NCBI GenBank assembly: GCA_964640155.1
Contig: CAZXEQ010000002.1
Location: 322,342-386,341, forward strand
Length of the DNA stretch: 64,000 bases
Source of the DNA: an uncultured bacterium
GTDB lineage: Bacteria; Auribacterota; JACPWU01
Direction of reading: 5' to 3'
Shown here: positions 14,283 through 63,427 of the stretch, one piece after another
Position numbering within the stretch: position 1 is the first letter of the stretch
Layout: each line of letters opens with the position of its first letter
Notes under the pieces: generated by a model
Seen by the model: the letters and a program-made list of their open reading frames with translations, nothing else
What the model was told of the DNA's origin: nothing
Database searches by the model: none
Made by a program: the position numbers and the translations under genes

Positions 14283-14371
14283 GGAGAGGTGGCTGAGTGG
14301 CCTAAAGCGACGGCTTGCTAAGCCGTTGTACTGTTAATTCAGTACCGGGGGTTCGAATCCCCCCCTCTCCG
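14283..14371 (+). tRNA. tRNA-Ser (anticodon GCU)
   Basis: Long variable arm, anticodon loop uuGCUaa, T-arm GGTTCGAATCC, acceptor ggagagg/cctctcc. Confidence 0.85.
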
Positions 14372-14445: not shown

Positions 14446-14564
14446 GGGAGGCCTGACATAGCATAATGCAAATCATGCACTGCATGATTTGCGACTGTTA
14501 GGAGGGCCGGGTGGCCGACCGGAGTGAGTGTAACGAACGTAGGCGCCGAATCCCCCCCTCTCCG
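14446..14564 (+). repeat. tRNA-downstream element copy 3
   Basis: GGGATTCGAAGGGAG start, internal hairpin (gcaaatcatgca/tgcatgatttgc), GGGTGGCCGACCGGAGTGA module, ends with cgaatccccccctctccgaagttta duplicating the tRNA-Ser(GCU) 3' end and flank. Confidence 0.5.
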
Positions 14565-22030: not shown

Positions 22031-22150
22031 ATATTCTTTAAGTAAGAAGCGGGTCCTGACGCTTGGCAGCCTCACCATACTTATGAAAAATTGCGCGCGG
22101 TGGGGCTTCCCCGCCAAGCGTCACCCATATCTATAAAGAACATACTTTTA
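22031..22150 (+). repeat. palindromic repeat element (RPE-like) copy A, intergenic folP-cdaA
   Basis: Aligns to the other six copies (gggtcctgac...aaaaattgcgcgcgg.ggggc..ccccgcc.agcgtcaccc); most diverged copy. Confidence 0.6.
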
Positions 22151-30805: not shown

Positions 30806-30875
30806 AAAGTATAGAATTTGTGATGAATCTTTTCAATGATTTATAACAATGTTTGCTCAATAGATATTGTAATTA

Positions 30876-30998
30876 AAAGTGTGTACTTTTAAAAAAGTGG
30901 CAGGGCCTGACACTCGTCATCCCCACCGTGCTCATAAAAAATTGCGCGCGGCGGGGCTCCCCGCCGAGTGTCACCCGTATTATAAAGGACACACTTTT
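30876..30998 (+). repeat. palindromic repeat element (RPE-like) copy B, intergenic greA-pbpC
   Basis: Terminal inverted repeats aaagtgtgtactttt / aaaggacacactttt, internal GC-rich hairpin gcgcgcggcggggctccccgccgag. Confidence 0.7.
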
Positions 30999-31008
30999 AT
31001 ACATGCTA

Positions 31009-33210
31009 TCACTCAACATGAATATTCACTTTTGCTGAAGCGCCTGTTTCGTCTGTAACGTAAATCTCATGCAGGCCAGGTTGAGGAATCCAAAAAAGAG
31101 CTTTTTCTGGACGGGTTTTCCCTATGAGAAGCCCATTCACAAACCACCATCGCCAGGAATGAGGCGATCCTCCTATAGACTGAAGAGGTAGTTTTTGATT
31201 TTTTTGAAAAGAGGGGGCGTCTAAGAAAAATTTTTGATTTGAAGAAATAGAAGAAATGGTTAGTTTAGAAATATCTTTTTCAAGTTCAATAGATTTTGCT
31301 AAACCTTCGTCCTGGATTTGAGGCCATGGTTTATTTTTCGGCTTTAAGCAAGATAGAAGTTTTAAAGTCAAGGGTGCTGCCAAAGTTTGTCCAACTAATT
31401 CATGAGAGCCTTTCCCAAGAGAGTTTCCAAGCCATGTTACAAGTGTGTATTCATGTGTTACTGCTACACACCAAGCATCTTTGTGTGCACTGCTTGTGCC
31501 TGTTTTCCAGGCAGGATTAAATGGAATGGCTTCAGGACAAACAGCGTAAGTTCGTTTGGGATCACTTAAGGCATTCAGTACTTGCCAGCATGCTTTTTGA
31601 GATAATATATTTTGATGGTGTGAATAAAAGTGCGGTCCTTTAAAAAGTGGCGGGTCCTGCCACTCGTCAGCCCCAACGTGCTCACTAAAAGTTGCGCGCG
31701 ATGGGGCCCCCCGCCGAGTGTCACCCGCATCTGTAAAGGACACACTTTTATCTACAGGATTTACATTTTGTGTGGCAGTGTCAGTATTAGATGTTAAAAG
31801 AGGAATATAAGTGACAGGCAGATGAATTCCTCCTCGCCCCAGTGTTGCAAAAGCTTCTGCAAGTTCTATAGGAGAAGCCTCGGCTCCTCCTATAGCTAAA
31901 GAAAGGCCATATCGATCTGGAAATTGCTCCAGTCTTTTAAATCCTAAACTTTGTAAAATTCCAACTACGCGAGCGATGCCTATTTTAGAAAGTAAAATCA
32001 TGGCGGGGATATTTCGACTTTGAGCAAGTGCTTCTGCCGCACACATAAAGCCTCTAAAAGTATGATCAAAATTGCTAGGGGTGTAGCCCTCCCAGCTCAA
32101 AGGAAGGTCTTTTAAAATTGTTGTGGGGGTGCAAATTCCTGCTTCAAAAGCGGCTGCGTAAATAAATGGTTTTAATGTAGAACCTGTTGAATAGTAACGG
32201 TTGGATAAATCTAAATTATTTGCATCGTCACATAAATTAATCGAGGCCAAACACTCAGAAGTTTGTGTGTTTAAAAGAACAAGTGAAAGAGCGTTGATCT
32301 GAGAAGATTTTAACTTTTCGAATTCTTGTTTGGCTATGAGGGTTAACTGCTCTTGAATATCTTTATCTAAAGAGGTTTTAAATTTTCCTTGTTGAAATTT
32401 TTCCTTTAAGGTCAGTAAGATGGGCAGAATTCCTGATTTTTTTTCTTGTGGCAGAGCTTGCCATGTGGCTTGAATAGGTTCTTCAATAGCGCGTGCGTAA
32501 TCTTGCTCAGAGATCATTTTTTCTGATAACATTCGAAACAAAACGTGATTACGTCTCTTAAGTGCACGTTCTATAAAACGATCTGGGCGATAGCGATTGG
32601 GACTTTGAGGAAGGCCTGCCAAAAGGGCAGCTTGGCTTAAAGAAAGATTGCGACATGAAATTCCAAAATATCTCCAGCTTGCAGCACCTACCCCGATTAA
32701 ATTCCCTCCCAAAGGACATCGATTGAGATATTCTGTCAAAATTTCATTCTTACTCATTTTTCTTTCTAATTGATAAGCACGAATAGATTCAATCAGTTTG
32801 GATGAGAAAGTCCGTGGTTTTGGATAACGTAAATGTTCAACTTGCATGGTAAGAGTGCTTGCGCCACGTATGATTTTCATGGCTTTAAAATCTTGCCAAA
32901 GAGCAGCAGCAACGCCAATCCAGTCCACTCCATGGTGTTGATAAAAACGATGATCTTCGACGGCAACAATTGCTTTAAAAAGATAAGGGCTTATTTCTTC
33001 TTCTTTTAATGGAAAATACCATTCATTTTTTTCTGAAACAAAAGCCCCCAAAGGCTTTCCTTCTCGATCTTCTATCCAAAGGCTGGGTGGAGGTTTTGGA
33101 GTGGGAGGATAAGACCAGGAGTAAACTGCAATAGAAAACGAAATACAAATAAAACTGAATACGCTAATAATTCCCAGTATGAAAATTTTGAAAGAATGTT
33201 TAATGGTCAT
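31009..33210 (-). CDS. pbpC: penicillin-binding protein 1C (transglycosylase/transpeptidase)
   Basis: N-terminal TM, glycosyltransferase motifs (EDHRFYQHHGVD; RGASTLTMQ), transpeptidase STGSTLKP; start overlaps stop of upstream A2M gene. Confidence 0.88.
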   Translation of the reverse strand: MTIKHSFKIFILGIISVFSFICISFSIAVYSWSYPPTPKPPPSLWIEDREGKPLGAFVSEKNEWYFPLKEEEISPYLFKAIVAVEDHRFYQHHGVDWIGVAAALWQDFKAMKIIRGASTLTMQVEHLRYPKPRTFSSKLIESIRAYQLERKMSKNEILTEYLNRCPLGGNLIGVGAASWRYFGISCRNLSLSQAALLAGLPQSPNRYRPDRFIERALKRRNHVLFRMLSEKMISEQDYARAIEEPIQATWQALPQEKKSGILPILLTLKEKFQQGKFKTSLDKDIQEQLTLIAKQEFEKLKSSQINALSLVLLNTQTSECLASINLCDDANNLDLSNRYYSTGSTLKPFIYAAAFEAGICTPTTILKDLPLSWEGYTPSNFDHTFRGFMCAAEALAQSRNIPAMILLSKIGIARVVGILQSLGFKRLEQFPDRYGLSLAIGGAEASPIELAEAFATLGRGGIHLPVTYIPLLTSNTDTATQNVNPVDKSVSFTDAGDTRRGAPSRATFSEHVGADEWQDPPLFKGPHFYSHHQNILSQKACWQVLNALSDPKRTYAVCPEAIPFNPAWKTGTSSAHKDAWCVAVTHEYTLVTWLGNSLGKGSHELVGQTLAAPLTLKLLSCLKPKNKPWPQIQDEGLAKSIELEKDISKLTISSISSNQKFFLDAPSFQKNQKLPLQSIGGSPHSWRWWFVNGLLIGKTRPEKALFWIPQPGLHEIYVTDETGASAKVNIHVE
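31627..31750 (+). repeat. palindromic repeat element (RPE-like) copy C, in frame inside pbpC
   Basis: Reverse complement translates without stops as KSVSFTDAGDTRRGAPSRATFSEHVGADEWQDPPLFKGPHF within the PbpC ORF. Confidence 0.7.
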
Positions 33211-36200
33211 GAATGTGAATGGGTTGCAATTTTCATTGTTTCATTGTCACGACTGATGCTGTTAATTGAAATATCATACATGCATTCAGCTTTTACAGGG
33301 GGAACAGTAAAAGTTCCAGGAGTCACAGCCCTGGCTAGATAAGTATATTGTGCTTTCCCTTTGTCTAACATTTTTCCGTAGAGCACAAGACGATCATCAC
33401 GAATATCGATATGACTATCCATAAATGTAGTTTGAGTAGGGTCTTTGAGAATAGAAGCTGAAGTTGCAAGCCTTGGATTTTCAATTTCAAGTCCAGCGGG
33501 AAGCAAATCTTCAATGACCATATTGTCATAACCCAAAGGACATTCTAGATGTATCTCTACTTGTATCAAGTCTCCACTACAAATTTTATCTAGGGCGATT
33601 GCGTGTCCCTGTTGATCAAGATATCTTTTTCTCACACTTATCCCATGATCTTCATTTAAAGGAGGCTCTTTGGCAAGGCCTGTGATGCTCCATGCAACAT
33701 AGCCCTTTGTTTTTTCAGCTCCTGAGATTTTAACTGAAAATTCTTTCCCATTCAGAAATTTATTTGAAGAATTCCAGAGAAGAGAATCTCCATTCCCTGT
33801 TTCAGAAATTTTCTCTGTCCCCGCCCAAAGTTCGGCTGATGTAAAAGGTTCTCCAAAATCTGTTTCCTTTAAATAAGACCCCAGTGCAAGAAGAGCAAAA
33901 GCATGATCTTGCGTACTTTGCCATTTTTTTTCGCCGCCGGCTTGGGCAAGTTCTTTAACCAATTTGGGAAGGGCTGGATTTTGTGGATCAAGTTCAATCA
34001 GACTTTGAATTAAAATAGCTTGATCTCGAATAGGGGACCCAATGTTTCCAGATAGGTCTCTGTTTTGGCGAGGGTGAGGTAGATTCTGAGGAATTAACTT
34101 TAAGGCCAAATCTCGTCTGCCAGAATAAAGCCAGGCCAGGGCAAGATAAAAGCGAGTTGAAGGATGGATGCTAGAGGAGATAGAAGTTGGGAGAGTGGAA
34201 GGTCTTTGAAAAATATCTTCCAGACGTGACATCATGGATCTCTGGGGATATCCCGCTTTAGCAAGAACAAAACAGGCATAAGCCTGAATCTCTAAAATAT
34301 TGGGTTGATCAGAACTTTCGTTTAATAATTTTCGAACATAATTTAAAAGTCGATCGCGAAAATCAGTTGGAATAGAGAAGCCGGCGTTTTCTGCTTCGGT
34401 GATAAAATGTGTTGCATAAACACTGGCCCAGCTCCAGCTCTCAGTATAGCCAGGCCACATAGCAAGTCCCCCTTCAGCTGTTTGCATACTGATCAAACGA
34501 TTAAGAGCTGTTTCAACTCTTTGATGAATGTATTGAGTATTAAATGGTTCTGGGAAAATCTTCTCTCCTAGTTTTTGCAATCCAATGAGAGGAAAGGTGG
34601 TGCTAACCGTTTGTTCGGCACATCCATGGGGGTATTCATTGAGATAATCCAAAGCCTTTGTCAGATTTAAAGTGGGAAATGGAGTTACGTGAATATTCAA
34701 CTGTGTTGTTCCCTCAATCCATTTTTCTGGAATTCTGATTTTAAAATCTTGATGGGGTTTAAGGGTTGCATATCCTCCTTCAGAAATTGAAGGACAGGCA
34801 GGACGAATAGGGAATATGAGATTTTGCTGATATTCTTGTCCATTGAGTTGCGCTTTGATTTTAAGACGAGCTATTCCCATTTTATTCTTAGCTTTCAAAG
34901 GAATGGTGATCACGGTTTGAGCGTTATCGGGAATGGAGTTTGTAGTAAAATTGATTTTTCTTTCGGAGGAGTGTGGAAAATAAACAGGACTTTTATTGTC
35001 TAGTTCTATTGAGAGGTTAGCAATGCCTTCACTTCCCGTATGATTGAAAATGACAATCGGTATTTCAAAATGATCATTATTTGCAGCAAAGCGAGGAGTA
35101 GTACTTTGTAACATGAGAGGAGATTTAACAAAAATGGGCTTAGATGCTGATCCAAAAAATTTTTTAGAATGAGCAATGGCCATGACTCGCAATTGACCTG
35201 TGAATTCTGGAAGACGAAAATCAACTTTTACGTTTCCATTTTCGTCACAGCGAAGTACTTTTGAAACAAGTGCAACATTTTTCATACGTTGTATAGACAA
35301 TGGAGTTAAATGACGTGGCTCATAACCTCCATCTCCTCCCACCGAACTTTTAGGATTTATTTTTGGAATCTCTGGGAAAAGTTCTCCATAAAGATCTGAA
35401 ACAAATACGTTCAAAGCTCGATTTCGATGAAAGAATGAAAAAGGATCTGGGGGTGAGAAATTCGTGAGTTGAAGAATCCCTTCATCTACGATTAACAAAG
35501 TGACCCTTGCATTTTTAGCAGGTTTATTTTGAGGGGTTAAAACTTTTGCTTCAACACGGATTTTGTTTTTGGGCAGGATTTCTTTTTTTGTTTGAATCTT
35601 TATTTTCAGCTTTTGATCGTTATTGTTGATCGCAAGGCGAGTCACGCCAAAAGCACGATGGATTTTCCATGGAGCCTTGGAATGGACGGGCTGAATCACC
35701 GTCGCACTTACATAGGCATTGGGACGATAGCTTTCTAAAATATCAATCGGAATAGATATATGAGATTGTGTCATGGTCAGAACTTTGTGAAAGAGAACAT
35801 TCTCTGTTTCTATCGTTAAAAGAAGTTGCCCTGGGAAAGGACTGCGAACAATGACTTGCGCTTGACCTCCAACTTTCAAAGAGGACGAATATCTATTAAA
35901 GTGCGTCTTTTTAAAAAGAAGTGGGTCCTGCCGCTCGTCAGCCCCATCGTGCTCAGTAAAAGTTGCGCTCGATGGGGCCCCCCGCCGAGCGTCACCCACA
36001 TTTTTAGAATCATTTTTTAATTCTTTGCCCATAGGAATAATTTCAATTTGTAATTGCTCTGGGTTCTCTCGAGAGACTGAATCCTCCCAGCCATTTTCAC
36101 TGCTCACATAAAATCCATGTGAAGTGAAGCTGCCTGTTTGAGAATCTTTGATAGCAATCACATAAGACCCTTCACTGGGAGGAATGATTTCAAAATGTCC

Positions 36201-38948
36201 TTTCTCTTGTTCTAAAATTGCATAAGAAGAAGATGCTTTTTCCAGTATACGTGTTGAGTCATAATGATAGCTCCCATCGCGATAGGTCATGATATTGTTC
36301 CAAGTCTCACGAAAAAGTTGTATCTCCATTTGTTTCGAAATCTTGGCTATTTGCCCATGCCCAGAAACACATGCAATATCAAAAACATACGGAGAACCGG
36401 GCTGAGCTTTTTGATTTTGTTGAGGACGTATGCCGACATAATATGGAACAGTATCAATGAAAACTCTTTTTGTGGCACTGACAGCCCTACCGCCCATTTC
36501 TTGAACACTTCCCAGAACAGTTAATTGCCAGGGACCCGTATACGAGGGGGTTTCTTTTATAAGAGAGTTCGGGGGGTGATTGAGAAGAAGAGAAAGATCT
36601 ACTTTCCATTCACCTTTGCCTTTCTCATTTAATTTAATCTTAGGCGACTCAATCGATTGTCCTTGGGGAAGAATACCTCCAAGTGTTTTAAAAGCATTGG
36701 CAGAATCTGTGAAAGTCCATTCTTTCCAATGTTTGGGTTTGAATGGTGCAGGATCGAGACGACTTGAAAGTGTTGCATCTGTTCCTGAAGCAGGTTGTCC
36801 AAAAAGATAGTTTGCTGCAATATGAACTGAAAGAGATTGTGAGGATAAAGTATAGCGATCATGGCGAATATTTTTTAAATTTAAAGCAACTTTCATTCTA
36901 TCGGGAATAAATTCCTCAACAAAAAAAGAAGTTGTTCCAAATGTTTTAGCATCAGCATCTTTTGATTTTGGAAGGCCAATGGATACAGTCCAATTTCCAG
37001 TGGGAATATCTTGAGGTAATTTGACAGAAAGGTAAACCATTCCAGAACTGTCCACCTTGGCCATGTGTCCTTTCCAATTTCTCCCATCGGGCCTATAAAA
37101 TTGACACCAGACAGGAAATTCTTCGGGGGTACTTAAATGAGGCCCTCGAATGATTGCCCAGAGATGGACTTTTTCACCGGGTCTATAGGCTCCACGTTCA
37201 GAGTAGACAAAAGCTTCATAGGCTTTGGATGAATAAGGACTCCCAGAAATATCAAAATGAGAATAGGAAAGTTCGCTTGTTCTTAAATCTAACCATGTCA
37301 AATGGGCGGGCTCTGTGGCAGCGTTAAAATTTGCAACTACTACGACAGGTTTCTCATCGTTAGAGGTTTCAATGGTATTGATTTTAATAATACCATTTTC
37401 ATCAGAAATTCCTTCTCCCAAAAGTTGATTCTTATTGGAAAATAAGCGAATGCGTACATGCTCCATGGGTTTACCTGTACTTAAAGACAGAGTCCAAACA
37501 AAAAGACCATGAGGGAATCTCTTGGCCACTAAACCAATGTCAGATAATGTAACAACCGTTGTATCGGATAACTCCCAGGCATATCCTTGATTCTCATTCT
37601 CGGCTTTGATTTGAATTTCATAAACCCCATTTTGCTTGAGATTTTCAGGCAGGAGCTCATCCAAGGATAAATGAATATCCTGAACTTTATTTTTCTCCAT
37701 TTCTAATTTAAGAGATTTTTGTGCGATTACTTGACTAAAATGATGAAGACCCATCCATTGATTCTCATAAACCGTGTTTCTCCAATGGACAATATTATTC
37801 TCATACATTTTTGTGAGAGTGATTTGAATGTTTTGAACATTGATAGCGTGAGCTAGAATCATTCGATTCCCTTTAGCTCCCAAAAACCCATGATCCTGTT
37901 CAAACCACACAGAAGCCTTACGATCTGGGATAAAAACACTAAAGAGATCTTCCTGAGGATAATTTTTCGAATCATTTTTGATGCGAGGTGCATTTACTTT
38001 CAATGCATATCGGTTTCCAGGGATAAAATCTGCCTCAAGACTGACTCCAAACCATTCTCGAATCAGTGTGAAGGGTAAAATAGGTTCAATAGAAAGAATT
38101 TCTTTTAAAATTTCTATATCGACATCATTATTGAAATAAAGTTGCAGTCTAATTTTTCCTTTTGAAGAAGAATAAGGTTCTACTTTTGTAATCATTAAGT
38201 GGCGGTTAAGGGTCAATTGCGTTTCATAAAGATTGGTTAATCCTAAAGGCCCACTAATCCCACATAGTCCTTCTCGAATCCTTACAATCACTTGAAGATA
38301 AGAGGATATATTTTGATAGAGAAAAGGAGTGGGCTCTGTCATCACGCGTATCACATTTGCGGTTACGCCTTCATAAAGGCGAAAAGGGATTTTTTGATGA
38401 ACCAGAGATTCAATCTCCAGAAATTTTGCAACTTCAGTTGGAAGCATTTTGTCGTTAAATTCAATTTCAATCATAAACTGATTTTTTTCGTCAAAGGCTG
38501 CTTGGCGTACAGATAAAATTTGCAAGGCTGGGGTTTTGACGGTTGCAGAATACGACTGATTCAGTAAAAACCCTTCCTTGGACTTTAAAGAATGAAGAGG
38601 AAAAGTAAAAGTAAAGGCTGTTGCTTTGGGGAGGTCTTTCTGGGGTGTAAAAGTAAGCTTTCGAGTGTTCACCCATTCCCAATGTCCAGGGATGAGGTAA
38701 GACGCATCGCCTGAACTCTTGATGATGACTTTGGATGAAACATCTTCACAAACCATATCTAAATTAAATTCCCAGGATAAAACAGGCCGTGTTCCTGTCT
38801 CAATATTGTTTCCTGGGTTAAAGCGTTCTATTTTAAGAACATTGAGCGTTTTTAATTGATAAGCATGATGAAATGCTGCCCAGGCAAGAATATTTGTAAT
38901 TGCAAAACAAAAAACGGTTATCCAAAATCGTTTGTGTAACATGAACAT
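33207..38948 (-). CDS. alpha-2-macroglobulin family protein (bacterial A2M, thioester-containing)
   Basis: 1913 aa, N-terminal signal/anchor, thioester motif GCAEQ, large MG-domain architecture; genetically coupled to pbpC. Confidence 0.9.
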   Translation of the reverse strand: MFMLHKRFWITVFCFAITNILAWAAFHHAYQLKTLNVLKIERFNPGNNIETGTRPVLSWEFNLDMVCEDVSSKVIIKSSGDASYLIPGHWEWVNTRKLTFTPQKDLPKATAFTFTFPLHSLKSKEGFLLNQSYSATVKTPALQILSVRQAAFDEKNQFMIEIEFNDKMLPTEVAKFLEIESLVHQKIPFRLYEGVTANVIRVMTEPTPFLYQNISSYLQVIVRIREGLCGISGPLGLTNLYETQLTLNRHLMITKVEPYSSSKGKIRLQLYFNNDVDIEILKEILSIEPILPFTLIREWFGVSLEADFIPGNRYALKVNAPRIKNDSKNYPQEDLFSVFIPDRKASVWFEQDHGFLGAKGNRMILAHAINVQNIQITLTKMYENNIVHWRNTVYENQWMGLHHFSQVIAQKSLKLEMEKNKVQDIHLSLDELLPENLKQNGVYEIQIKAENENQGYAWELSDTTVVTLSDIGLVAKRFPHGLFVWTLSLSTGKPMEHVRIRLFSNKNQLLGEGISDENGIIKINTIETSNDEKPVVVVANFNAATEPAHLTWLDLRTSELSYSHFDISGSPYSSKAYEAFVYSERGAYRPGEKVHLWAIIRGPHLSTPEEFPVWCQFYRPDGRNWKGHMAKVDSSGMVYLSVKLPQDIPTGNWTVSIGLPKSKDADAKTFGTTSFFVEEFIPDRMKVALNLKNIRHDRYTLSSQSLSVHIAANYLFGQPASGTDATLSSRLDPAPFKPKHWKEWTFTDSANAFKTLGGILPQGQSIESPKIKLNEKGKGEWKVDLSLLLNHPPNSLIKETPSYTGPWQLTVLGSVQEMGGRAVSATKRVFIDTVPYYVGIRPQQNQKAQPGSPYVFDIACVSGHGQIAKISKQMEIQLFRETWNNIMTYRDGSYHYDSTRILEKASSSYAILEQEKGHFEIIPPSEGSYVIAIKDSQTGSFTSHGFYVSSENGWEDSVSRENPEQLQIEIIPMGKELKNDSKNVGDARRGAPSSATFTEHDGADERQDPLLFKKTHFNRYSSSLKVGGQAQVIVRSPFPGQLLLTIETENVLFHKVLTMTQSHISIPIDILESYRPNAYVSATVIQPVHSKAPWKIHRAFGVTRLAINNNDQKLKIKIQTKKEILPKNKIRVEAKVLTPQNKPAKNARVTLLIVDEGILQLTNFSPPDPFSFFHRNRALNVFVSDLYGELFPEIPKINPKSSVGGDGGYEPRHLTPLSIQRMKNVALVSKVLRCDENGNVKVDFRLPEFTGQLRVMAIAHSKKFFGSASKPIFVKSPLMLQSTTPRFAANNDHFEIPIVIFNHTGSEGIANLSIELDNKSPVYFPHSSERKINFTTNSIPDNAQTVITIPLKAKNKMGIARLKIKAQLNGQEYQQNLIFPIRPACPSISEGGYATLKPHQDFKIRIPEKWIEGTTQLNIHVTPFPTLNLTKALDYLNEYPHGCAEQTVSTTFPLIGLQKLGEKIFPEPFNTQYIHQRVETALNRLISMQTAEGGLAMWPGYTESWSWASVYATHFITEAENAGFSIPTDFRDRLLNYVRKLLNESSDQPNILEIQAYACFVLAKAGYPQRSMMSRLEDIFQRPSTLPTSISSSIHPSTRFYLALAWLYSGRRDLALKLIPQNLPHPRQNRDLSGNIGSPIRDQAILIQSLIELDPQNPALPKLVKELAQAGGEKKWQSTQDHAFALLALGSYLKETDFGEPFTSAELWAGTEKISETGNGDSLLWNSSNKFLNGKEFSVKISGAEKTKGYVAWSITGLAKEPPLNEDHGISVRKRYLDQQGHAIALDKICSGDLIQVEIHLECPLGYDNMVIEDLLPAGLEIENPRLATSASILKDPTQTTFMDSHIDIRDDRLVLYGKMLDKGKAQYTYLARAVTPGTFTVPPVKAECMYDISINSISRDNETMKIATHSHS
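35898..36010 (+). repeat. palindromic repeat element (RPE-like) copy D, in frame inside the A2M gene
   Basis: Encodes VGDARRGAPSSATFTEHDGADERQDPLLFKKTHF inside the A2M ORF, homologous to the peptide encoded by copy C. Confidence 0.65.
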
Positions 38949-39008
38949 TCTCCAAAATCCAAAGTTTTTTAGTTAGAAATAGTAGGAAAATAATCTCACA
39001 TATAAACT

Positions 39009-39156
39009 TAAGTCCTCGGGCTTTTCACCGTCCTTTAGGATGAGGTAAGAAACGGGGCCTGCCACTCGTCAGCCCTACCGTGCTCATGAAAAATTGCGCG
39101 CGGGGCGGGGCTCCCCCCGCCGAGTGTCACCCGTATTGTAAAGGACACACTTTTTT
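39009..39156 (+). repeat. palindromic repeat element (RPE-like) copy E, long variant
   Basis: Core as other copies plus 5' extension gtcctcgggcttttcaccgtcctttaggatgaggtaagaaacgg shared with copy G. Confidence 0.7.
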
Positions 39157-39368
39157 ACACACGATCGGGAAAATTTTCTTAAAAACACTTTGAGATTTTC
39201 GAGAAGCAGGGTCAAGAAGAAAACAGAAGTGATTTATAAAATACGAAGTAACTCGCTGAAGGAGAGAAAGTAGGGATAAAATTTTTTTGAAAAATTATTT
39301 TACAATTAAAAAAACTTGAAGATTTTTCTAAATCTCAAGCTCGAAGTTTAAGGGATTTCTCAAAAGGA

Positions 39369-40508
39369 TTAAAGCTTTCTTACTTTGACATGAGCTTCTT
39401 CTAATAAGCGTAGACTTACATCCCCTACAGAATAGGCATGACTATAAACAACTTCTTTGATGCCACTATTGATAATCATTTTGGTACACATCAGACAAGG
39501 TGAAAAAGTAGAGTAAATTGTAGAGTCTTTAATGCTGACCCCATGATAAGCCGATTGTGTGATCGCATTTTCTTCAGCATGTGAGCATAAACATTCATCG
39601 AGCTGAGTCCCTTGTTGGGAGAAGCTGTTGCATCGTAGACAACCTCCATCCATACAATTCTTAGTACCACGGGGCGTTCCATTATAGCCCGTGGCAATGA
39701 TGCGTTTGTCTTTAACAATAACCGCCGCGACTTTTCGTTTGATACAATTGCTGCGTAAGGCAACTACTTTAGCAATTCCTATAAAATAATCATCCCAGCC
39801 AGGTCGACTAGAATTTGTTCCATATTTTTTTAATACCTCAATCACTTGTTCGTAAATTTTTTCAAGAGATCCTGCATTCATTAAAGAAGTATCTGAAATG
39901 GCTTGTGTTTGGTCTAGTTGTTGATGGTTAGGATTTTGAGATGAACGTTCTGCGTTTTCCAGACGTATAAATTCTTCTAGAGTCTGAGGGTCATTCTCTC
40001 TTCCTCGGGCTTTGATTCGCTCAAAACGTAGTTCCAGAGGAGCATCAATAAAAAGCAGAATAAAATCTTTTCTTTTCTTGAGGGATTTAGCTTCTTCAGG
40101 ATTGCGGATAGAATCTACAACATAATTTTTATCAACATCTAGAGTAGACGAAATCTTATCTGCTAAAACGGAAGGTCCAAACTGACTACGAAGTTCATTC
40201 CCAACTTGAATTAAATTTTCGCGTGTGATTTGAGTCCGTCGATTTTTGAGTTCATCTCGAAGAACATCCGAAAGCGAGGAATAAATAAACCCCCGTTGTT
40301 TTAAAAATTCTGCGATAACTCCTTTGCCTGAGCCATTTCTTCCAGTGAGTCCAATAATCACAAGATTAGAATCCTTTCTTATCAATTCTACTTTCTCGAT
40401 AGATTCTACTATGAGGCGAGTTGTTGGACAACCATTGTTTAAACTAAAAGCGAGAACGATTTTATAATTAAAAGTGTGTACTTTTAAAAAAGTGGCAGAG
40501 CCTGCCAC
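39369..40508 (-). CDS. P-loop nucleotide kinase / dCMP-type zinc deaminase fusion protein
   Basis: N-terminal IIGLTGRNGSGKG Walker A (CoaE/dNMP-kinase-like), C-terminal deaminase with CSHAEENAI and SPCLMCTKMI zinc motifs; the annotated Met start lies inside repeat copy F so the true start is uncertain. Confidence 0.7.
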   Translation of the reverse strand: MAGSATFLKVHTFNYKIVLAFSLNNGCPTTRLIVESIEKVELIRKDSNLVIIGLTGRNGSGKGVIAEFLKQRGFIYSSLSDVLRDELKNRRTQITRENLIQVGNELRSQFGPSVLADKISSTLDVDKNYVVDSIRNPEEAKSLKKRKDFILLFIDAPLELRFERIKARGRENDPQTLEEFIRLENAERSSQNPNHQQLDQTQAISDTSLMNAGSLEKIYEQVIEVLKKYGTNSSRPGWDDYFIGIAKVVALRSNCIKRKVAAVIVKDKRIIATGYNGTPRGTKNCMDGGCLRCNSFSQQGTQLDECLCSHAEENAITQSAYHGVSIKDSTIYSTFSPCLMCTKMIINSGIKEVVYSHAYSVGDVSLRLLEEAHVKVRKL

Positions 40509-40596
40509 TCGTCAGCCCCACCGTGCTCATGAAAAATTGCGCGCGGCGGGGCTCCCCCCGCCGAGTGTCACCCGCATATATAAAGTACACACTTTT
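40471..40596 (+). repeat. palindromic repeat element (RPE-like) copy F, overlapping the 5' end of the kinase-deaminase ORF
   Basis: Near-identical to copy B (aaagtgtgtacttttaaaaaagtggcag.gcctg...). Confidence 0.7.
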
Positions 40597-40831
40597 CTAC
40601 ACATCATCGCAAGAACTTCAATTAGAATATTTTAATTTTACTTTAATGATTTTTTAACCTTTCTACTGAGATAATGCCTCTGTTAAAAAAGGCAGCATTG
40701 TTTCAGAGATAAAAAAATCTTTTCTTCAAATAGGGGGTTATGGTATATTTTGCGCACCTTACTCATCATGTGGGATGATGAGAGGATGTAGTTCAAAGTT
40801 AATTATTTAAATCAAACCAAGGAGATCAGTA

Positions 40832-41398
40832 ATGAAGAAGTTATTAGCGATTGCCCTTCTTTGCTTAGGCGTAGCAGGTTATGCCAAGGCTGATGAAGGT
40901 TCAGCATGTGTGCTTCATGGTTTTTATCTTGAACCAACTGTAGAAGCTTTTATTCCTTTCAATGATGATTTGGATTCTACAGTTTATGCAGGCGGTAAAG
41001 GTGGATATCAGTTCAACGAATGGTTTGCTGCTGAAATCGAAGCAGGTTGGGCAAACCCAGATCTTGCTGATGTAGGTGATGTCTCCACAGTACCTTTGCT
41101 TTTCAATGCCCGCATTAATTTATGGCCTGGCGTTTACTGTGTTGATCCTTATGTATTCGGCGGTATTGGTATTGCTTTCAATGAACTTGATGGCGTTCCA
41201 GCCGGTGTTGAGATTGATGACAGCTTTGCAGGTCAAATTGGCGCAGGAATTGAATACCATATCAACGAATCTCTTTCAGCTCAGCTTGAGTTGGATTTCT
41301 ACTTTAACAGCCCCGATTTAAACGTCCCTTTATTAGATGAAGAGGATGTTGAATTAAATGCTTTCCGTATCGGTGGCGGTATTACTTGGAGATTCTAA
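40832..41398 (+). CDS. outer membrane beta-barrel protein (OmpW/OmpA-like small porin family)
   Basis: Signal peptide, alternating hydrophobic beta-strand pattern, C-terminal aromatic ITWRF typical of OMP barrels. Confidence 0.6.
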   Translation: MKKLLAIALLCLGVAGYAKADEGSACVLHGFYLEPTVEAFIPFNDDLDSTVYAGGKGGYQFNEWFAAEIEAGWANPDLADVGDVSTVPLLFNARINLWPGVYCVDPYVFGGIGIAFNELDGVPAGVEIDDSFAGQIGAGIEYHINESLSAQLELDFYFNSPDLNVPLLDEEDVELNAFRIGGGITWRF

Positions 41399-41456: not shown

Positions 41457-41770
41457 TTTAGAGATTTTTCAGAAAAAGGGTGTTCTTTGTAATGCGGATG
41501 ACACTTGTCGGTGGGACTGACAAGTGGTAGGAACCACTATTCCTACAAAGAATACACTTGCTATAATTAATGTTTATTTACATTCTTTAAATTGGTATTC
41601 TTATCCAGTATTAGCTTCGCCCTTGGAGGGGAGCCAACGGGCCTATCCAACATTGTGAGAAAAACATTCAAATCCTATTAAAGGGATATTGAAAGTTTTT
41701 CTTTCTCTAGATTTTGGCCCTGTCAGTATTCGAATGTCCAACGTGTGTCTTGGGGAGCCATAAAGCTATT

Positions 41771-43078
41771 ATGAAAGCGCCAAAAGTTTTAGTGGTAGAT
41801 GATGAACAGGGAATACAAGAATCATTAAAAATGATTTTAAAAGAAGATTATCATGTCTTCACTGCTCCAAATGGTGAAGAGGCTTTTAAAGTTTTAAGTC
41901 AAGAATCTCCAGATTTGGTTCTCCTCGATGTTTTATTGCCTGGTATGGGTGGTATTGAAATTTTAAAAAAAGTAAAGGTTTCTAACCCGCAAACTCAAGT
42001 CATCATGGTGACAGGACAGGGGAAATTAAAAACAGCGGTAGAAGCTATTAAACTAGGTGCTTTCGATTACATTCATAAACCTTTTGATATTGAAGAATTA
42101 CGCAGAGTGGTCAAAAAGGCCATTGAACAAAGAAAATTTAAAGAGAGTGTTGATTTTCTAAAAGTAGAAGCCAAGCGCTCTTCCCAATTTGATGGAATTG
42201 TAGGATTTAGTCAAAAGATGAAGGACTTATTTGAAATCATCTCTCGTGTGATGAATTCGAATTCGAATGTTTTAATTACAGGAGAAAGTGGCACGGGAAA
42301 AGAATTGGTAGCTCGAGCTCTCCATTACAATGGTGTGAGAAAAGAAGGCCCTTTTGTGGTGGTTCATACTTCGGCGATTCCAGATAAACTCTTGGAAAGT
42401 GAACTTTTTGGCCATGAAAAAGGTGCCTTTACAGAAGAATTTCGACGTGTAGGTGGCATAGAATCGATTCATGTAGATGTTCGCTTTGTGGCTGCGACCA
42501 ATAAAAATTTAGAAAAGGCAATTCAATCAAATGACTTTCGAGAAGATCTATATTATAGATTGAGTGTGGTTCCTATCGTATTACCTCCATTGCGGGACAG
42601 AAGAGAAGATATCCCCTTGCTTGTTTATCATTTCCTTGAACGCAATCGTGCAAATAATAAAAATACGAAGGTAGAGGGATTTTCTCAAGAAGCTTTAGAT
42701 GCTTTAAGCTCTTATGATTGGCCCGGAAATGTTCGAGAATTACAAAATGTTATTGAAAACCTTGTTGTTATGAGCGATCGATATTTGATACAAATCGAAG
42801 ATCTTCCTCAAACCATTCGTATGAATCAATTGCAAAAAACTTTTTTTAATCGCAGTTCCCAAAATGGGGCTTCTTTGGAAGAAGTGGTTGCTGCTTTTGA
42901 GAAACAATTGATTTCTGAAGCCCTGCAAAAATGTAATGGTGTTTATACGCGAGCGGCTAAGCTCTTGGGAACAACGAGGCGTATCTTAAAATACCGTATT
43001 GATCAATTACAAATTGTGATTGAAAAGCGTAGACGACGAGTCTCTAAAATTAAAGAAGCAGTCCCTGTTTCTTTGTAA
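41771..43078 (+). CDS. sigma-54-dependent response regulator (receiver + AAA+ + Fis-type HTH), apparently lacking the Walker B region
   Basis: Receiver domain (VLVVDDE...LLDVLLPGMGG), Walker A GESGTGKE, ESELFGHEKGAFTEE (GAFTGA variant), R-finger FREDLYYRL, sensor II WPGNVREL, C-terminal HTH; start set at internal Met (MKAPKV). Confidence 0.8.
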   Translation: MKAPKVLVVDDEQGIQESLKMILKEDYHVFTAPNGEEAFKVLSQESPDLVLLDVLLPGMGGIEILKKVKVSNPQTQVIMVTGQGKLKTAVEAIKLGAFDYIHKPFDIEELRRVVKKAIEQRKFKESVDFLKVEAKRSSQFDGIVGFSQKMKDLFEIISRVMNSNSNVLITGESGTGKELVARALHYNGVRKEGPFVVVHTSAIPDKLLESELFGHEKGAFTEEFRRVGGIESIHVDVRFVAATNKNLEKAIQSNDFREDLYYRLSVVPIVLPPLRDRREDIPLLVYHFLERNRANNKNTKVEGFSQEALDALSSYDWPGNVRELQNVIENLVVMSDRYLIQIEDLPQTIRMNQLQKTFFNRSSQNGASLEEVVAAFEKQLISEALQKCNGVYTRAAKLLGTTRRILKYRIDQLQIVIEKRRRRVSKIKEAVPVSL

Positions 43079-43325: not shown

Positions 43326-43475
43326 AAAAGTGTGTCTTCGGACTTTTCGCCACCTTTAGGATTATATAAGAAACGGGTCCTGCCACTCGTCAGCCCCACC
43401 GTGCTCATAAAAAATTGCGCGCGGTGGGGGGCCTCTCCGCCGAGTGTCACCCGTAGTGTAAAGGACACACTTTTT
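43326..43475 (+). repeat. palindromic repeat element (RPE-like) copy G, long variant
   Basis: TIRs aaagtgtgtc / aaaggacacac; 5' extension cttcggacttttcgccacctttaggat shared with copy E. Confidence 0.7.
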
Positions 43476-43580
43476 GCGCACGATTGATTTTCCTCATTGG
43501 TCCTCAAATTCTACAGTTCTGGTCCCTATGACGTGAGTATGCATAAGAAAAAGTTTGAGGGTATTTAAAATTCGGATAGA

Positions 43581-44152: not shown

Positions 44153-44224
44153 GCTGGTGTAGCTCAACGGTAGAGCACCTGATTTGTAATCAGGCGGTTG
44201 CGGGTTCAAATCCCATCACCAGCT
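44153..44224 (+). tRNA. tRNA-Thr (anticodon UGU)
   Basis: gctggtgTAGCTCAACGGTAGAGC, anticodon loop uuUGUaa, T-loop TTCAAATCC; one apparent T-stem mismatch. Confidence 0.7.
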
Positions 44225-44277: not shown

Positions 44278-44412
44278 ATGGGAGGATTTGAAGGGAGCTC
44301 CGACGCCTTTATGATGCTGATCATGCGGTGCATGATCAGCGACGTCTAGTCGGAGCGGGTGGCCGACCGGAGTGAACGAAGTGAACATAGGCGCCAAATC
44401 CCATCACCAGCT
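44278..44412 (+). repeat. tRNA-downstream element copy 4
   Basis: GGGAGGATTTGAAGGGAG start, long hairpin (gctccgac...gatgctgatcatgc-ggt-gcatgatcagc...gtcggagc), GGGTGGCCGACCGGAGTGA module, ends with caaatcccatcaccagctgtt duplicating the tRNA-Thr 3' end. Confidence 0.5.
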
Positions 44413-46475: not shown

Positions 46476-47672
46476 ATGGCTAAGGAAAAATTTGAGAGAA
46501 AGAAACCACATGTAAACGTGGGAACGATTGGACACGTAGATCATGGTAAAACGACATTGACCGCAGCATTGACCAAAGTACTGTCAAAGAAGGGTCAAGC
46601 CAAAGAAATCACCTATGCCGACATCGCCAAAGGCGGAGTCGTGCGAGATGACTCAAAGATTGTAACCATTGCCGTATCACACGTAGAATACGAAAGCACC
46701 AATCGACACTATGCGCATATCGATTGTCCAGGACATGCCGACTATGTCAAAAACATGATCACTGGAGCAGCCCAAATGGATGGAGCCATTCTAGTGGTAA
46801 GTGCAACTGATGGACCCATGCCCCAAACAAGAGAACACATCTTATTGGCAAGGCAAGTCGGAGTACCTAACATCGTCGTATTCTTAAACAAATGTGACAC
46901 CGTAGATGATCCAGAACTATTAGACCTCGTAGAACTAGAAGTAAGAGAACTATTAACACAATATCAATTCCCCGGAGACAAAACTCCTATCGTCAGAGGA
47001 AGCGCATTAAAAGCACTACAGGGAGACACGAGCGAACTGGGAGAGCCATCCATTGCTAAACTACTAGAAGCATTGGACAGCTACATTCCAGAACCCAAAA
47101 GAGAAATCGACAAACCCTTCCTCATGCCCGTAGAAGACGTATTCAGCATCACTGGAAGAGGAACCGTAGCAACGGGAAGAATTGAAAGAGGCATCGTAAA
47201 AGTAGGAGAAACCCTAGAAGTCGTAGGACTCAAACCCACTAAAAACGTCGTCGTCACTGGAGTAGAAATGTTCCGAAAAGAACTAGACCAGGGACAAGCA
47301 GGAGACAACGTAGGAGCCTTGCTTAGAGGAGCAGAAAAAGACGACATCGAAAGAGGACAAGTCTTAGCGGCACCCGGAAGCATCAAGCCGCATACCAAAT
47401 TCAAAGCAGAAGTCTATGTCTTGAGCAAAGAAGAAGGAGGAAGGCACACACCCTTCTTCAATGGATACAGACCTCAATTCTACTTCAGAACAACGGATGT
47501 GACTGGAGTGGCGAACCTAGCAGGTGGAATAGAAATGGTAATGCCTGGAGACAACACGGCATTAGAAGTAGAGTTGATCAGTCCAATTGCAATGGACAAG
47601 GGCTTAAGATTTGCAATCCGAGAGGGAGGCAAGACCATCGGAGCAGGTAGAGTTACTGATATTATTGCGTAA
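46476..47672 (+). CDS. tuf: elongation factor Tu (copy 1)
   Basis: [11 protein letters not shown]1 motif, [12 protein letters not shown]; 398 aa; nucleotide-identical to copy at 62231-63427. Confidence 0.95.
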
Positions 47673-62230: not shown

Positions 62231-63427
62231 ATGGCTAAGGAAAAATTTGAGAGAAAGAAACCACATGTAAACGTGGGAACGATTGGACACGTAGATCATG
62301 GTAAAACGACATTGACCGCAGCATTGACCAAAGTACTGTCAAAGAAGGGTCAAGCCAAAGAAATCACCTATGCCGACATCGCCAAAGGCGGAGTCGTGCG
62401 AGATGACTCAAAGATTGTAACCATTGCCGTATCACACGTAGAATACGAAAGCACCAATCGACACTATGCGCATATCGATTGTCCAGGACATGCCGACTAT
62501 GTCAAAAACATGATCACTGGAGCAGCCCAAATGGATGGAGCCATTCTAGTGGTAAGTGCAACTGATGGACCCATGCCCCAAACAAGAGAACACATCTTAT
62601 TGGCAAGGCAAGTCGGAGTACCTAACATCGTCGTATTCTTAAACAAATGTGACACCGTAGATGATCCAGAACTATTAGACCTCGTAGAACTAGAAGTAAG
62701 AGAACTATTAACACAATATCAATTCCCCGGAGACAAAACTCCTATCGTCAGAGGAAGCGCATTAAAAGCACTACAGGGAGACACGAGCGAACTGGGAGAG
62801 CCATCCATTGCTAAACTACTAGAAGCATTGGACAGCTACATTCCAGAACCCAAAAGAGAAATCGACAAACCCTTCCTCATGCCCGTAGAAGACGTATTCA
62901 GCATCACTGGAAGAGGAACCGTAGCAACGGGAAGAATTGAAAGAGGCATCGTAAAAGTAGGAGAAACCCTAGAAGTCGTAGGACTCAAACCCACTAAAAA
63001 CGTCGTCGTCACTGGAGTAGAAATGTTCCGAAAAGAACTAGACCAGGGACAAGCAGGAGACAACGTAGGAGCCTTGCTTAGAGGAGCAGAAAAAGACGAC
63101 ATCGAAAGAGGACAAGTCTTAGCGGCACCCGGAAGCATCAAGCCGCATACCAAATTCAAAGCAGAAGTCTATGTCTTGAGCAAAGAAGAAGGAGGAAGGC
63201 ACACACCCTTCTTCAATGGATACAGACCTCAATTCTACTTCAGAACAACGGATGTGACTGGAGTGGCGAACCTAGCAGGTGGAATAGAAATGGTAATGCC
63301 TGGAGACAACACGGCATTAGAAGTAGAGTTGATCAGTCCAATTGCAATGGACAAGGGCTTAAGATTTGCAATCCGAGAGGGAGGCAAGACCATCGGAGCA
63401 GGTAGAGTTACTGATATTATTGCGTAA
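62231..63427 (+). CDS. tuf: elongation factor Tu (copy 2)
   Basis: Identical in nucleotide sequence to 46476-47672 as far as I can read it; canonical fusA-tuf-rpsJ position. Confidence 0.95.

Follow-up and report, generated by a model that had tools for sequence, protein, structure and literature searches.

A compact kinase-deaminase fusion from an uncultured Auribacterota bacterium is probably a housekeeping-type deoxycytidine monophosphate deaminase

The gene discussed here lies on the minus strand of a 64,000-nucleotide (nt) stretch of DNA (positions 322,342 to 386,341 of contig CAZXEQ010000002.1, assembly GCA_964640155.1) from an uncultured bacterium of the Auribacterota lineage JACPWU01, which we call the window, and it encodes a protein of 330 amino acids (aa) in which an N-terminal P-loop kinase-like domain is fused to a C-terminal zinc deaminase domain. 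We conclude that this is probably (at a probability of about 0.7) a non-defence, housekeeping-type deoxycytidine monophosphate (dCMP) deaminase of the Dcd1/ComEB kind, carried in a kinase-deaminase fusion. The first-pass annotation of the window had offered two functions for the protein, nucleotide-depletion defence or unusual salvage, of which the second is nearer the mark; the first is not supported, given a score of 135 bits against the defence-family model where 400 is required, the lack of the inserts and tail of the defence proteins, a retained GYNG motif, housekeeping synteny, and a closer relationship to fungal Dcd1.

The open reading frame (ORF) at 39369..40508 (−), to which that annotation referred, is present, its translation carries IIGLTGRNGSGKG, HAEENAI and PCLMC, and its two domains are real, but the true gene is shorter: it runs from 39369 to 40361 (−), with a GTG start preceded by AAAGGA and a TAA stop, and encodes the 330-aa P-loop kinase-like and dCMP deaminase fusion. 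The start at 40508 is wrong, because the homologues are all about 330 aa long and begin with MIIGLTG, and because the GTG at 40508 falls within a GC-rich palindromic repeat element; the first 49 codons of the ORF (40362..40508, −) are a spurious N-terminal extension that starts inside this repeat and has no counterpart in homologues. When the gene is compared with that of L008, a syntenic locus whose protein is 91% identical, the first, second and third codon positions are 92, 96 and 60% identical, and the kinase-deaminase gene is therefore under purifying selection. The reading of the protein as a Walker A kinase followed by a zinc deaminase is confirmed both by its motifs and by matches to the Pfam models AAA_18/AAA_17 and dCMP_cyt_deam_1.

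The zinc dCMP deaminase domain (39369..39806, −; residues 186-330 and the stop codon) scores 89.6 bits against dCMP_cyt_deam_1, for which the cut-off is 25, over residues 238-356 in the uncorrected numbering of the ORF. Its catalytic zinc/proton-shuttle motif HAE (39573..39581, −; residues 261-263) has H261 and E263 invariant, as are P288, C289 and C292 of the zinc-binding motif PCLMC (39486..39500, −; residues 288-292). The GYNG motif (39678..39689, −; residues 225-228), also invariant in the family, corresponds to G(Y/W)N(A/G), the allosteric-site motif of dCMP deaminases (PMC12088426), which is found in 120/120 close homologues of the compact family to which the window protein belongs and in 115/115 yeast Dcd1 proteins, but in 0/119 defence proteins, where GCND stands in its place. 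An AlphaFold model of the window protein (mean predicted local distance difference test, pLDDT, 83; predicted template-modelling score, pTM, 0.60, so that its inter-domain geometry is not reliable) was compared with structures in the Protein Data Bank (PDB) by Foldseek, and the top fold matches of the deaminase domain are 2hvw and 5c2o from Streptococcus mutans (template-modelling score, TM, 0.8; 36% identity), 1vq2 from phage T4, 4p9c from cyanophage S-TIM5 and the human DCTD 2w4l. Taken together, such single-domain dCMP deaminases (ComEB; 2HVV, 2HVW and 5C2O; 1VQ2; 4P9C; 2W4L) resemble the window domain at TM 0.64-0.87 and 29-36% identity, and match the window protein in sequence at E values from 1e-25, obtained with the S. 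mutans enzyme 2hvv, to 5e-12; plasmid and phage proteins of the ComEB type are 39-45% identical to the C-terminal domain. The catalytic motifs and the G(Y/W)N(A/G) allosteric motif are common to these enzymes and the window protein, whereas the N-terminal kinase domain is found in the window protein only.

This N-terminal, nucleoside monophosphate (NMP) kinase-like P-loop domain (39816..40361, −; residues 1 to about 182) scores above the Pfam cut-offs for AAA_18 and AAA_17 (residues 52-179 in ORF numbering), and these generic models are the only kinase-domain models that it passes: ADK (20.9 bits against 26.8), Cytidylate_kin2 (17.3 against 28) and cyt_kin_arch (20.4 against 102) remain below their cut-offs, as do CoaE and PRK08356 (74 bits). 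The Walker A or P-loop sequence GRNGSGKG (40320..40343, −; residues 7-14) can be read directly, and in a motif reading of our own, made without structural superposition, the NMP-kinase signatures GxxGxGKG, SLSDxxR, DSxR and a LID of the form RxxRxxxRxRxxD are all invariant; K13, D32, R35, R58, D83, R86, R112, R115, R119 and R121 are invariant in close homologues. The likeness to NMP kinases thus consists of the GxxGxGKG P-loop, an SxxDxxR motif resembling the NMP site, and a short arginine-rich LID. In the model, the best Foldseek match of the domain is the Sulfolobus protein SSO1041 of the UPF0200 family (3lw7, bound to adenosine monophosphate, AMP; TM 0.82-0.84, with 3h0k folding likewise), followed by dephospho-CoA kinases (CoaE) and UMP/CMP kinases. 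UPF0200/SSO1041 and the NMP kinases (UMP/CMP kinase, adenylate kinase, CoaE) differ from the window protein in being stand-alone proteins. To our knowledge, no function has been assigned to UPF0200.

The closest well-characterized counterpart of the whole protein is found among the fungi. Saccharomyces cerevisiae Dcd1 (YHR144C, 312 aa) was represented by the database protein P0394, which is 98% identical to the search probe and was the only one used; the deaminase domain of the window protein is 47% identical to it (E 2e-46). The similarity extends to the two-domain layout, to the length and to the retained GYNG, with the motifs RPxWDxYF, ATGYNGTPR, NCxxGGCxRCN and CLCxHAEENA common to Dcd1 and the window deaminase, and a profile alignment by hhalign of the compact family with the yeast Dcd1 family spans both domains (probability 100, E 4.4e-64, 298 columns). 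Full-length fungal proteins annotated as dCMP deaminases were also returned by the search of representative sequences, from Blyttiomyces (KAJ3330337.1) and from Elasticomyces (KAK5709870.1), the latter aligned by BLASTP over residues 1-330 against 1-328 with 34% identity (E 1e-55). Judged by the profile alignments, the compact family is closer to fungal Dcd1 (E 4.4e-64) than to the defence family (E 7e-32). The first-pass annotation had held that housekeeping dCMP deaminases are usually single-domain proteins, which is not true of fungal Dcd1, an enzyme of ordinary metabolism that supplies about 40% of yeast deoxyuridine monophosphate (dUMP) and whose deletion lowers deoxythymidine triphosphate (dTTP) and raises deoxycytidine triphosphate (dCTP) (PMC7145683). 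Dcd1 is eukaryotic and the window protein bacterial, and the two differ further in that yeast Dcd1 has neither Walker A (0/115) nor some 30 residues that correspond to the NMP-binding region, whereas the NMP-kinase-like site of the window protein is complete. Since the P-loop of yeast Dcd1 is degenerate, kinase chemistry is not needed for dCMP deaminase function. Two further proteins, P0283 (284 aa) and P0286 (296 aa), have deaminase domains 62-63% identical to that of the window protein and have lost the N-terminal P-loop (they begin MIVVLMDSQ... and MILGLISLD..., respectively); P-loop decay has therefore occurred in prokaryotic members too, as in yeast Dcd1.

The family is large, and its members sit among ordinary cellular genes. 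A word-indexed search returned more than 5000 relatives of the window protein, of which the best 120, at 59-91% identity, are 329-376 aa long except for one of 424 aa and come from metagenome-assembled genomes (MAGs) labelled Chlamydiota and Omnitrophota; an exhaustive search of representatives at 50% identity gave 20,818 matches at E <= 1e-3 and 622 at E <= 1e-30, with the full-length layout (about 325-350 aa) persisting down to about 33% identity. In a scan of one genome per species we found 270 relatives, and the best 80 of these (55-91% identity) belong to Omnitrophota, Acidobacteriota, 'Deltaproteobacteria', Nitrospinota, Planctomycetota, Nitrospirota, Gemmatimonadota and MAGs of the Planctomycetota-Verrucomicrobiota-Chlamydiota (PVC) group. 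The window's own genome is absent from the collections searched, and its nearest relatives are MAGs labelled Auribacterota or Chlamydiota. To describe the genomic context, ORFs were called in fetched loci, 78 of which yielded the target gene, their neighbours were clustered and the recurrent clusters annotated. In 25 loci of the Omnitrophota type, ispH/LytB lies directly downstream on the same strand, usually with an M48 peptidase, a ferredoxin and a conserved protein annotated without function before the gene, and a glutaredoxin or nitroreductase beyond; the Acidobacteriota have an upstream acyl-CoA dehydrogenase gene in 15 loci and, in 11, a downstream gene for a membrane protein of 87 aa; the Nitrospinota loci show a conserved neighbour pattern of their own; and in individual loci the neighbours include Dus, DnaA, EF-P, aconitase-family and NADH-dehydrogenase genes, YchF and GlpX. 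Within the lineage of the window, L008 (91%) and L091 (81%) keep the side with a sigma-54 regulator and an outer-membrane beta-barrel protein (OMP), and L092 (77%) keeps the side with GreA, a BamB-like protein and DUF4352. Throughout, the relatives' loci show housekeeping neighbours in lineage-specific synteny, with no mobile-element or defence genes among the neighbours, and a neighbour-joining tree of the family proteins groups them largely by phylum label. The distribution thus points to a compact kinase-deaminase family that is mostly vertically inherited, from Omnitrophota, Acidobacteriota, Nitrospinota, Planctomycetota and the PVC group to the fungi, where it is represented by Dcd1. Because the neighbours are housekeeping genes, the synteny is conserved by lineage and the tree follows phylum, the picture is the one that the first-pass annotation had itself set against its defence proposal, namely a housekeeping family at syntenic positions in relatives and with no association with defence islands.

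The first-pass annotation had noted, correctly, that the anti-phage dCTP deaminases are fusions of a P-loop kinase and a cytidine deaminase (Tal 2021, bioRxiv 10.1101/2021.04.26.441389; Severin 2021, bioRxiv 10.1101/2021.03.31.437871), and the window protein is homologous to them over both domains. If it were an enzyme of this AvcD/DcdV type, it would be inactive until infection and would then deaminate dCTP and dCMP, starving the phage of deoxycytidine nucleotides; we consider this very unlikely. The layout of P-loop kinase-like and zinc deaminase domains is the same and the defence enzymes need both of their domains (bioRxiv 10.1101/2021.04.26.441389; 10.1101/2021.03.31.437871), which speaks for the idea, and HAE and PCxxC are conserved in both families, but the proteins themselves are built differently. 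The enzyme of Tal et al. has 576 aa, with a kinase domain at the N-terminus and a zinc deaminase at the C-terminus, and the family was defined by a length of >350 aa and a defence score of >0.33, with a sparse, strain-variable distribution (bioRxiv 10.1101/2021.04.26.441389); DcdV/AvcD has 532 aa (PMC10511110); and our own defence reference, protein QMO34151 of the Escherichia coli plasmid CP057903, which scores 498.9 bits against the NCBIfam model antiphage_deaminase (NF041025) and 604 bits against the PADLOC model dCTPase, has 499 aa. At 330 aa the window protein is shorter than all of these (499-576 aa) and falls under the length limit of Tal et al., and it lacks what the defence proteins have: an N-terminal extension, a kinase insert (about 20 aa), a deaminase insert (about 40 aa, separating the GxNx motif from HAE) and a C-terminal tail. 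That tail is probably the place of K511E and Q514R, two of the DcdV substitutions that abolish sensitivity to the RNA DifV, which are located near the C-terminus of DcdV. Against NF041025 the window protein reaches 135.5 bits and its relatives 147-156, well under the cut-off of 400. The canonical P-loop GxxGxGK[GST], present in 115/120 close homologues, occurs in 0/119 defence proteins (and in 0/115 yeast Dcd1 proteins), since the variant P-loop of the defence proteins, GxxGSGxK[TSG], falls outside the canonical Walker A pattern; and the GYNG of the window protein contrasts with AvcD/DcdV, which are said to have no conserved allosteric site (Severin 2021, bioRxiv 10.1101/2021.03.31.437871).

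Context separates the two families as well. DcdV/AvcD is inhibited by a co-transcribed RNA of 152-174 nt (AvcI/DifV) encoded directly 5' of the gene (PMC10511110), and all three defence-type control loci that we examined have, 24-52 nt upstream and on the same strand, an annotated or called 'ORF' of 174-186 nt in the position of this RNA antitoxin (L088, 5685-5870; L089, 3546-3722; L090, 7775-7948), which is a useful positional marker of the defence subtype. These controls adjoin mobile-element genes (IS21/IS110 transposases, a resolvase, an integrase or a relaxase), the opposite of the housekeeping synteny of the compact family. Among 73 relatives of the window gene the upstream gap has a median of 86 nt and is below 150 nt in 51, several genes even overlapping their upstream neighbour, and most family members therefore have no room for a 5' RNA of the AvcI type. 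In the window the gap is 470 nt, or 309 nt without the repeat, and its segments 40609-40831 and 40362-40450 are 90-94% identical to positions 1843-2150 of L008, compared with 83-85% DNA identity, and 60% at third codon positions, for the genes that flank this OMP-deaminase intergenic region. In L091 only the OMP-proximal half of the region is conserved and the gene-proximal half is not, which again speaks against a defence-type 5' RNA. A search with Rfam of the whole window at the gathering threshold, and of 38900-40900 at E <= 1, returned tRNAs and two chance-level matches only; folding of the upstream block 40609-40831 gave z-scores of -0.4 and -1.4 on the two strands and hence no structural signal; and in 38900-40900 predicted promoters and terminators were no more numerous than in shuffled sequence. 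The conservation of the intergenic region most likely reflects the promoter and leader of the OMP gene, and an unstructured, lineage-specific AvcI-like RNA 5' of the window gene is unsupported but conceivable. The same region holds a perfect 8-bp palindrome, CTCATCAT-CCCAC-ATGATGAG.

A number of observations weigh against the assignment to a housekeeping dCMP deaminase and must be set beside it. The antiphage_deaminase model, although far from its cut-off, is the top-scoring NCBIfam model for the window protein; PADLOC dCTPase (PDLC02373) matches it with 188 bits (E 7e-56); BLASTP aligns it with QMO34151 at 25% identity (E 5e-17); and the hhalign alignment of the compact family with the defence family covers both domains (probability 99.9, E 7e-32, 317 columns), so that the two families are homologous in both domains and a dCTP-directed activity may be common to them. 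The ComEB equivalog model TIGR02571 gives 122 bits against a cut-off of 219, by which the window protein would be classed as having a dCMP-deaminase-type domain and not as a ComEB equivalog. Two relatives, L001 and L004/L009, at 77-78% identity, show different, though still housekeeping, contexts, and no named cultured chlamydia appears among the named top matches. Finally, the degenerate P-loop of yeast Dcd1 sits uneasily with the role that we favour for the kinase domain. On balance, the profile comparisons indicate that the window protein is an evolutionary relative of AvcD/DcdV and not a member of that family.

The data establish the two-domain layout, its motifs and fold, the kinship with other families, the conserved gene order and the purifying selection; enzymatic activity and a housekeeping role are inferred. 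As a housekeeping enzyme, the protein would act through its zinc-dependent deaminase domain to convert dCMP to dUMP for thymidylate synthesis, and the deaminase would probably be controlled by dCTP and dTTP through the retained GYNG allosteric site. What the kinase domain contributes is a matter on which we can offer a preferred guess: it might equilibrate deoxycytidine diphosphate (dCDP) with dCMP (dCDP + ADP <-> dCMP + ATP, where ADP and ATP are adenosine di- and triphosphate) beside the deaminase, whose irreversible step would pull the products of ribonucleotide reductase towards dUMP. A purely nucleotide-binding, regulatory role of the domain is about equally possible, and both readings are sub-hypotheses within the non-defence interpretation.

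In the first, which we put forward tentatively, the fusion would be bifunctional, the NMP-kinase domain carrying out phosphotransfer on deoxycytidine nucleotides (from dCDP or dCTP to dCMP, or the reverse) and passing dCMP to the deaminase, so that the enzyme might serve, again with considerable doubt, as a dCDP/dCTP-to-dUMP converter that replaces Dcd in organisms without it. This is consistent with the invariance of all NMP-kinase signature residues, with the bound AMP of the nearest structural neighbour 3lw7, with the weak matches to archaeal (d)CMP kinase and adenylate kinase, with a fusion that is kept down to about 33% identity, and with the behaviour of the related defence enzymes, which in vivo deplete dCMP, dCDP and dCTP together while dUMP accumulates (Tal 2021, bioRxiv 10.1101/2021.04.26.441389). 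Against it, the sequence does not reveal the substrate, Dcd1 of yeast functions although its P-loop is degenerate, direct deamination of dCTP has been reported for AvcD (PMC10511110), and the inter-domain geometry of the AlphaFold model, at pTM 0.60, is too unreliable to help. In the second, of comparably limited likelihood, the P-loop domain would be non-catalytic, a nucleotide-sensing or oligomerization module adding a second allosteric layer to an ordinary dCMP deaminase, much as the degenerate N-domain presumably does in fungal Dcd1. Homologues from fungi retain the domain despite the loss of Walker A and the NMP-binding segment, the domain of DcdV is required although its function is described as unknown, and the deaminase domain by itself resembles complete single-domain enzymes; yet across bacterial phyla no catalytic-type residue of the kinase domain varies, a stronger constraint than simple nucleotide binding calls for.

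With the housekeeping interpretation as our preferred one, the protein is of interest mainly for what its intact P-loop domain does and for the evolutionary connection between AvcD and the housekeeping dCMP deaminases. The data connect three groups that are usually treated apart, the bacterial compact kinase-deaminases, fungal Dcd1 and AvcD, and suggest that the defence toxin AvcD was recruited from an enzyme of nucleotide metabolism; a literature search for a kinase-dCMP deaminase fusion other than AvcD/DcdV returned nothing relevant. It is conceivable, though we hold it to be the less probable outcome, that the compact family, with its thousands of members, is a bifunctional enzyme forming a third bacterial route to dUMP and is also the housekeeping stock from which both AvcD and Dcd1 came. 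If so, an active NMP-kinase domain would feed dCMP derived from dCDP or dCTP to an allosterically controlled deaminase, AvcD would have arisen by gaining its inserts and RNA antitoxin and losing the allosteric site, and Dcd1 by decay of the P-loop. The bacterial compact family, with its textbook NMP-kinase site, is the most tractable material in which to establish the role of the P-loop domain, that of AvcD included. There is also a practical side to the distinction: the defence hidden Markov model PADLOC dCTPase matches the housekeeping-like compact family at E values of 1e-56 to 1e-64, and its members could therefore be miscalled as anti-phage genes; the two families can be told apart cleanly by GYNG versus GCND, by protein length, by the 5' element and by the NCBIfam cut-off.

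In the window, the gene had been described as standing alone, on the strand opposite to its plus-strand neighbours, which turned out to be mistaken: directly downstream on the minus strand follow genes for an alpha-2-macroglobulin (A2M)-like protein (33207..38948), PBP1C (31009..33210), GreA and a BamB-like protein, and the divergent genes on the upstream side encode the OMP, a sigma-54 response regulator, a NUDIX hydrolase and RmuC. No defence system was found in the window, where PADLOC models match the neighbours through generic domains only (the sigma-54 regulator matches the RtcR/PspF models, RmuC the DRT-associated RmuC model, and the NUDIX hydrolase PDC-S07). A defence island built on these matches was considered and rejected, as the partner genes are not present.

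The gene had further been described as flanked by repeat elements, and copies do lie on both sides of it, upstream at 40461..40610 (−) and downstream at 39021..39175 (−), but no cassette is bounded by them: both are members of a dispersed family of GC-rich palindromic repeats, which measure about 110-160 nt and carry the terminal inverted repeats AAAAGTGTGT...ACACACTTTT and of which the window contains at least seven copies (22037-22149, 30867-31003, 31625-31756, 35898-36001, 39021-39175, 40461-40610 and 43343-43484) and a fragment (41474-41516). The upstream copy folds with a minimum free energy of -64 kcal/mol (z -6.0), and no match to the upstream palindrome was found when metagenome contigs were scanned for its exact pattern. 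Both flanking copies are missing from L008 as clean indels of about 160 nt, the gene order there being the same, and a mobile cassette bounded by the two repeats was accordingly rejected; they are recent intergenic insertions, neither cassette borders nor part of the function of the gene. The repeat looks like an element of the miniature inverted-repeat transposable element (MITE) or Rickettsia palindromic element (RPE) type that is actively spreading in the lineage. Two of the copies lie inside long ORFs with the frame intact, between Pfam domains: that at 31625-31756 in PBP1C (about aa 485-528), and that at 35898-36001 in A2M (about aa 982-1017, immediately ahead of the bait-region domain), the latter also present in L008 (6399-6490). 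These in-frame copies resemble Rickettsia palindromic elements.

Some minor features of the window deserve mention. The sigma-54 regulator (41714-43078) matches the model Sigma54_activat in two separate stretches, the first covering model positions 1-80 of 168, and its AAA+ core may have undergone an internal deletion or rearrangement. Farther along, the window contains nine tRNAs as well as tuf, rpoB- and rpoC-sized ORFs. A pair of 398-aa ORFs (46476..47672 and 62231..63427) is probably a duplicated tuf, one following a tRNA cluster and the other a fusA-sized ORF of 696 aa; over 300 nt (46476-46775 and 62231-62530) they are 100% identical, which suggests gene conversion. A direct repeat of 92 nt with 77% identity (14463-14554 and 44311-44402) lies about 90 nt downstream of tRNA-Ser (14283-14371) and of tRNA-Thr (44153-44224).

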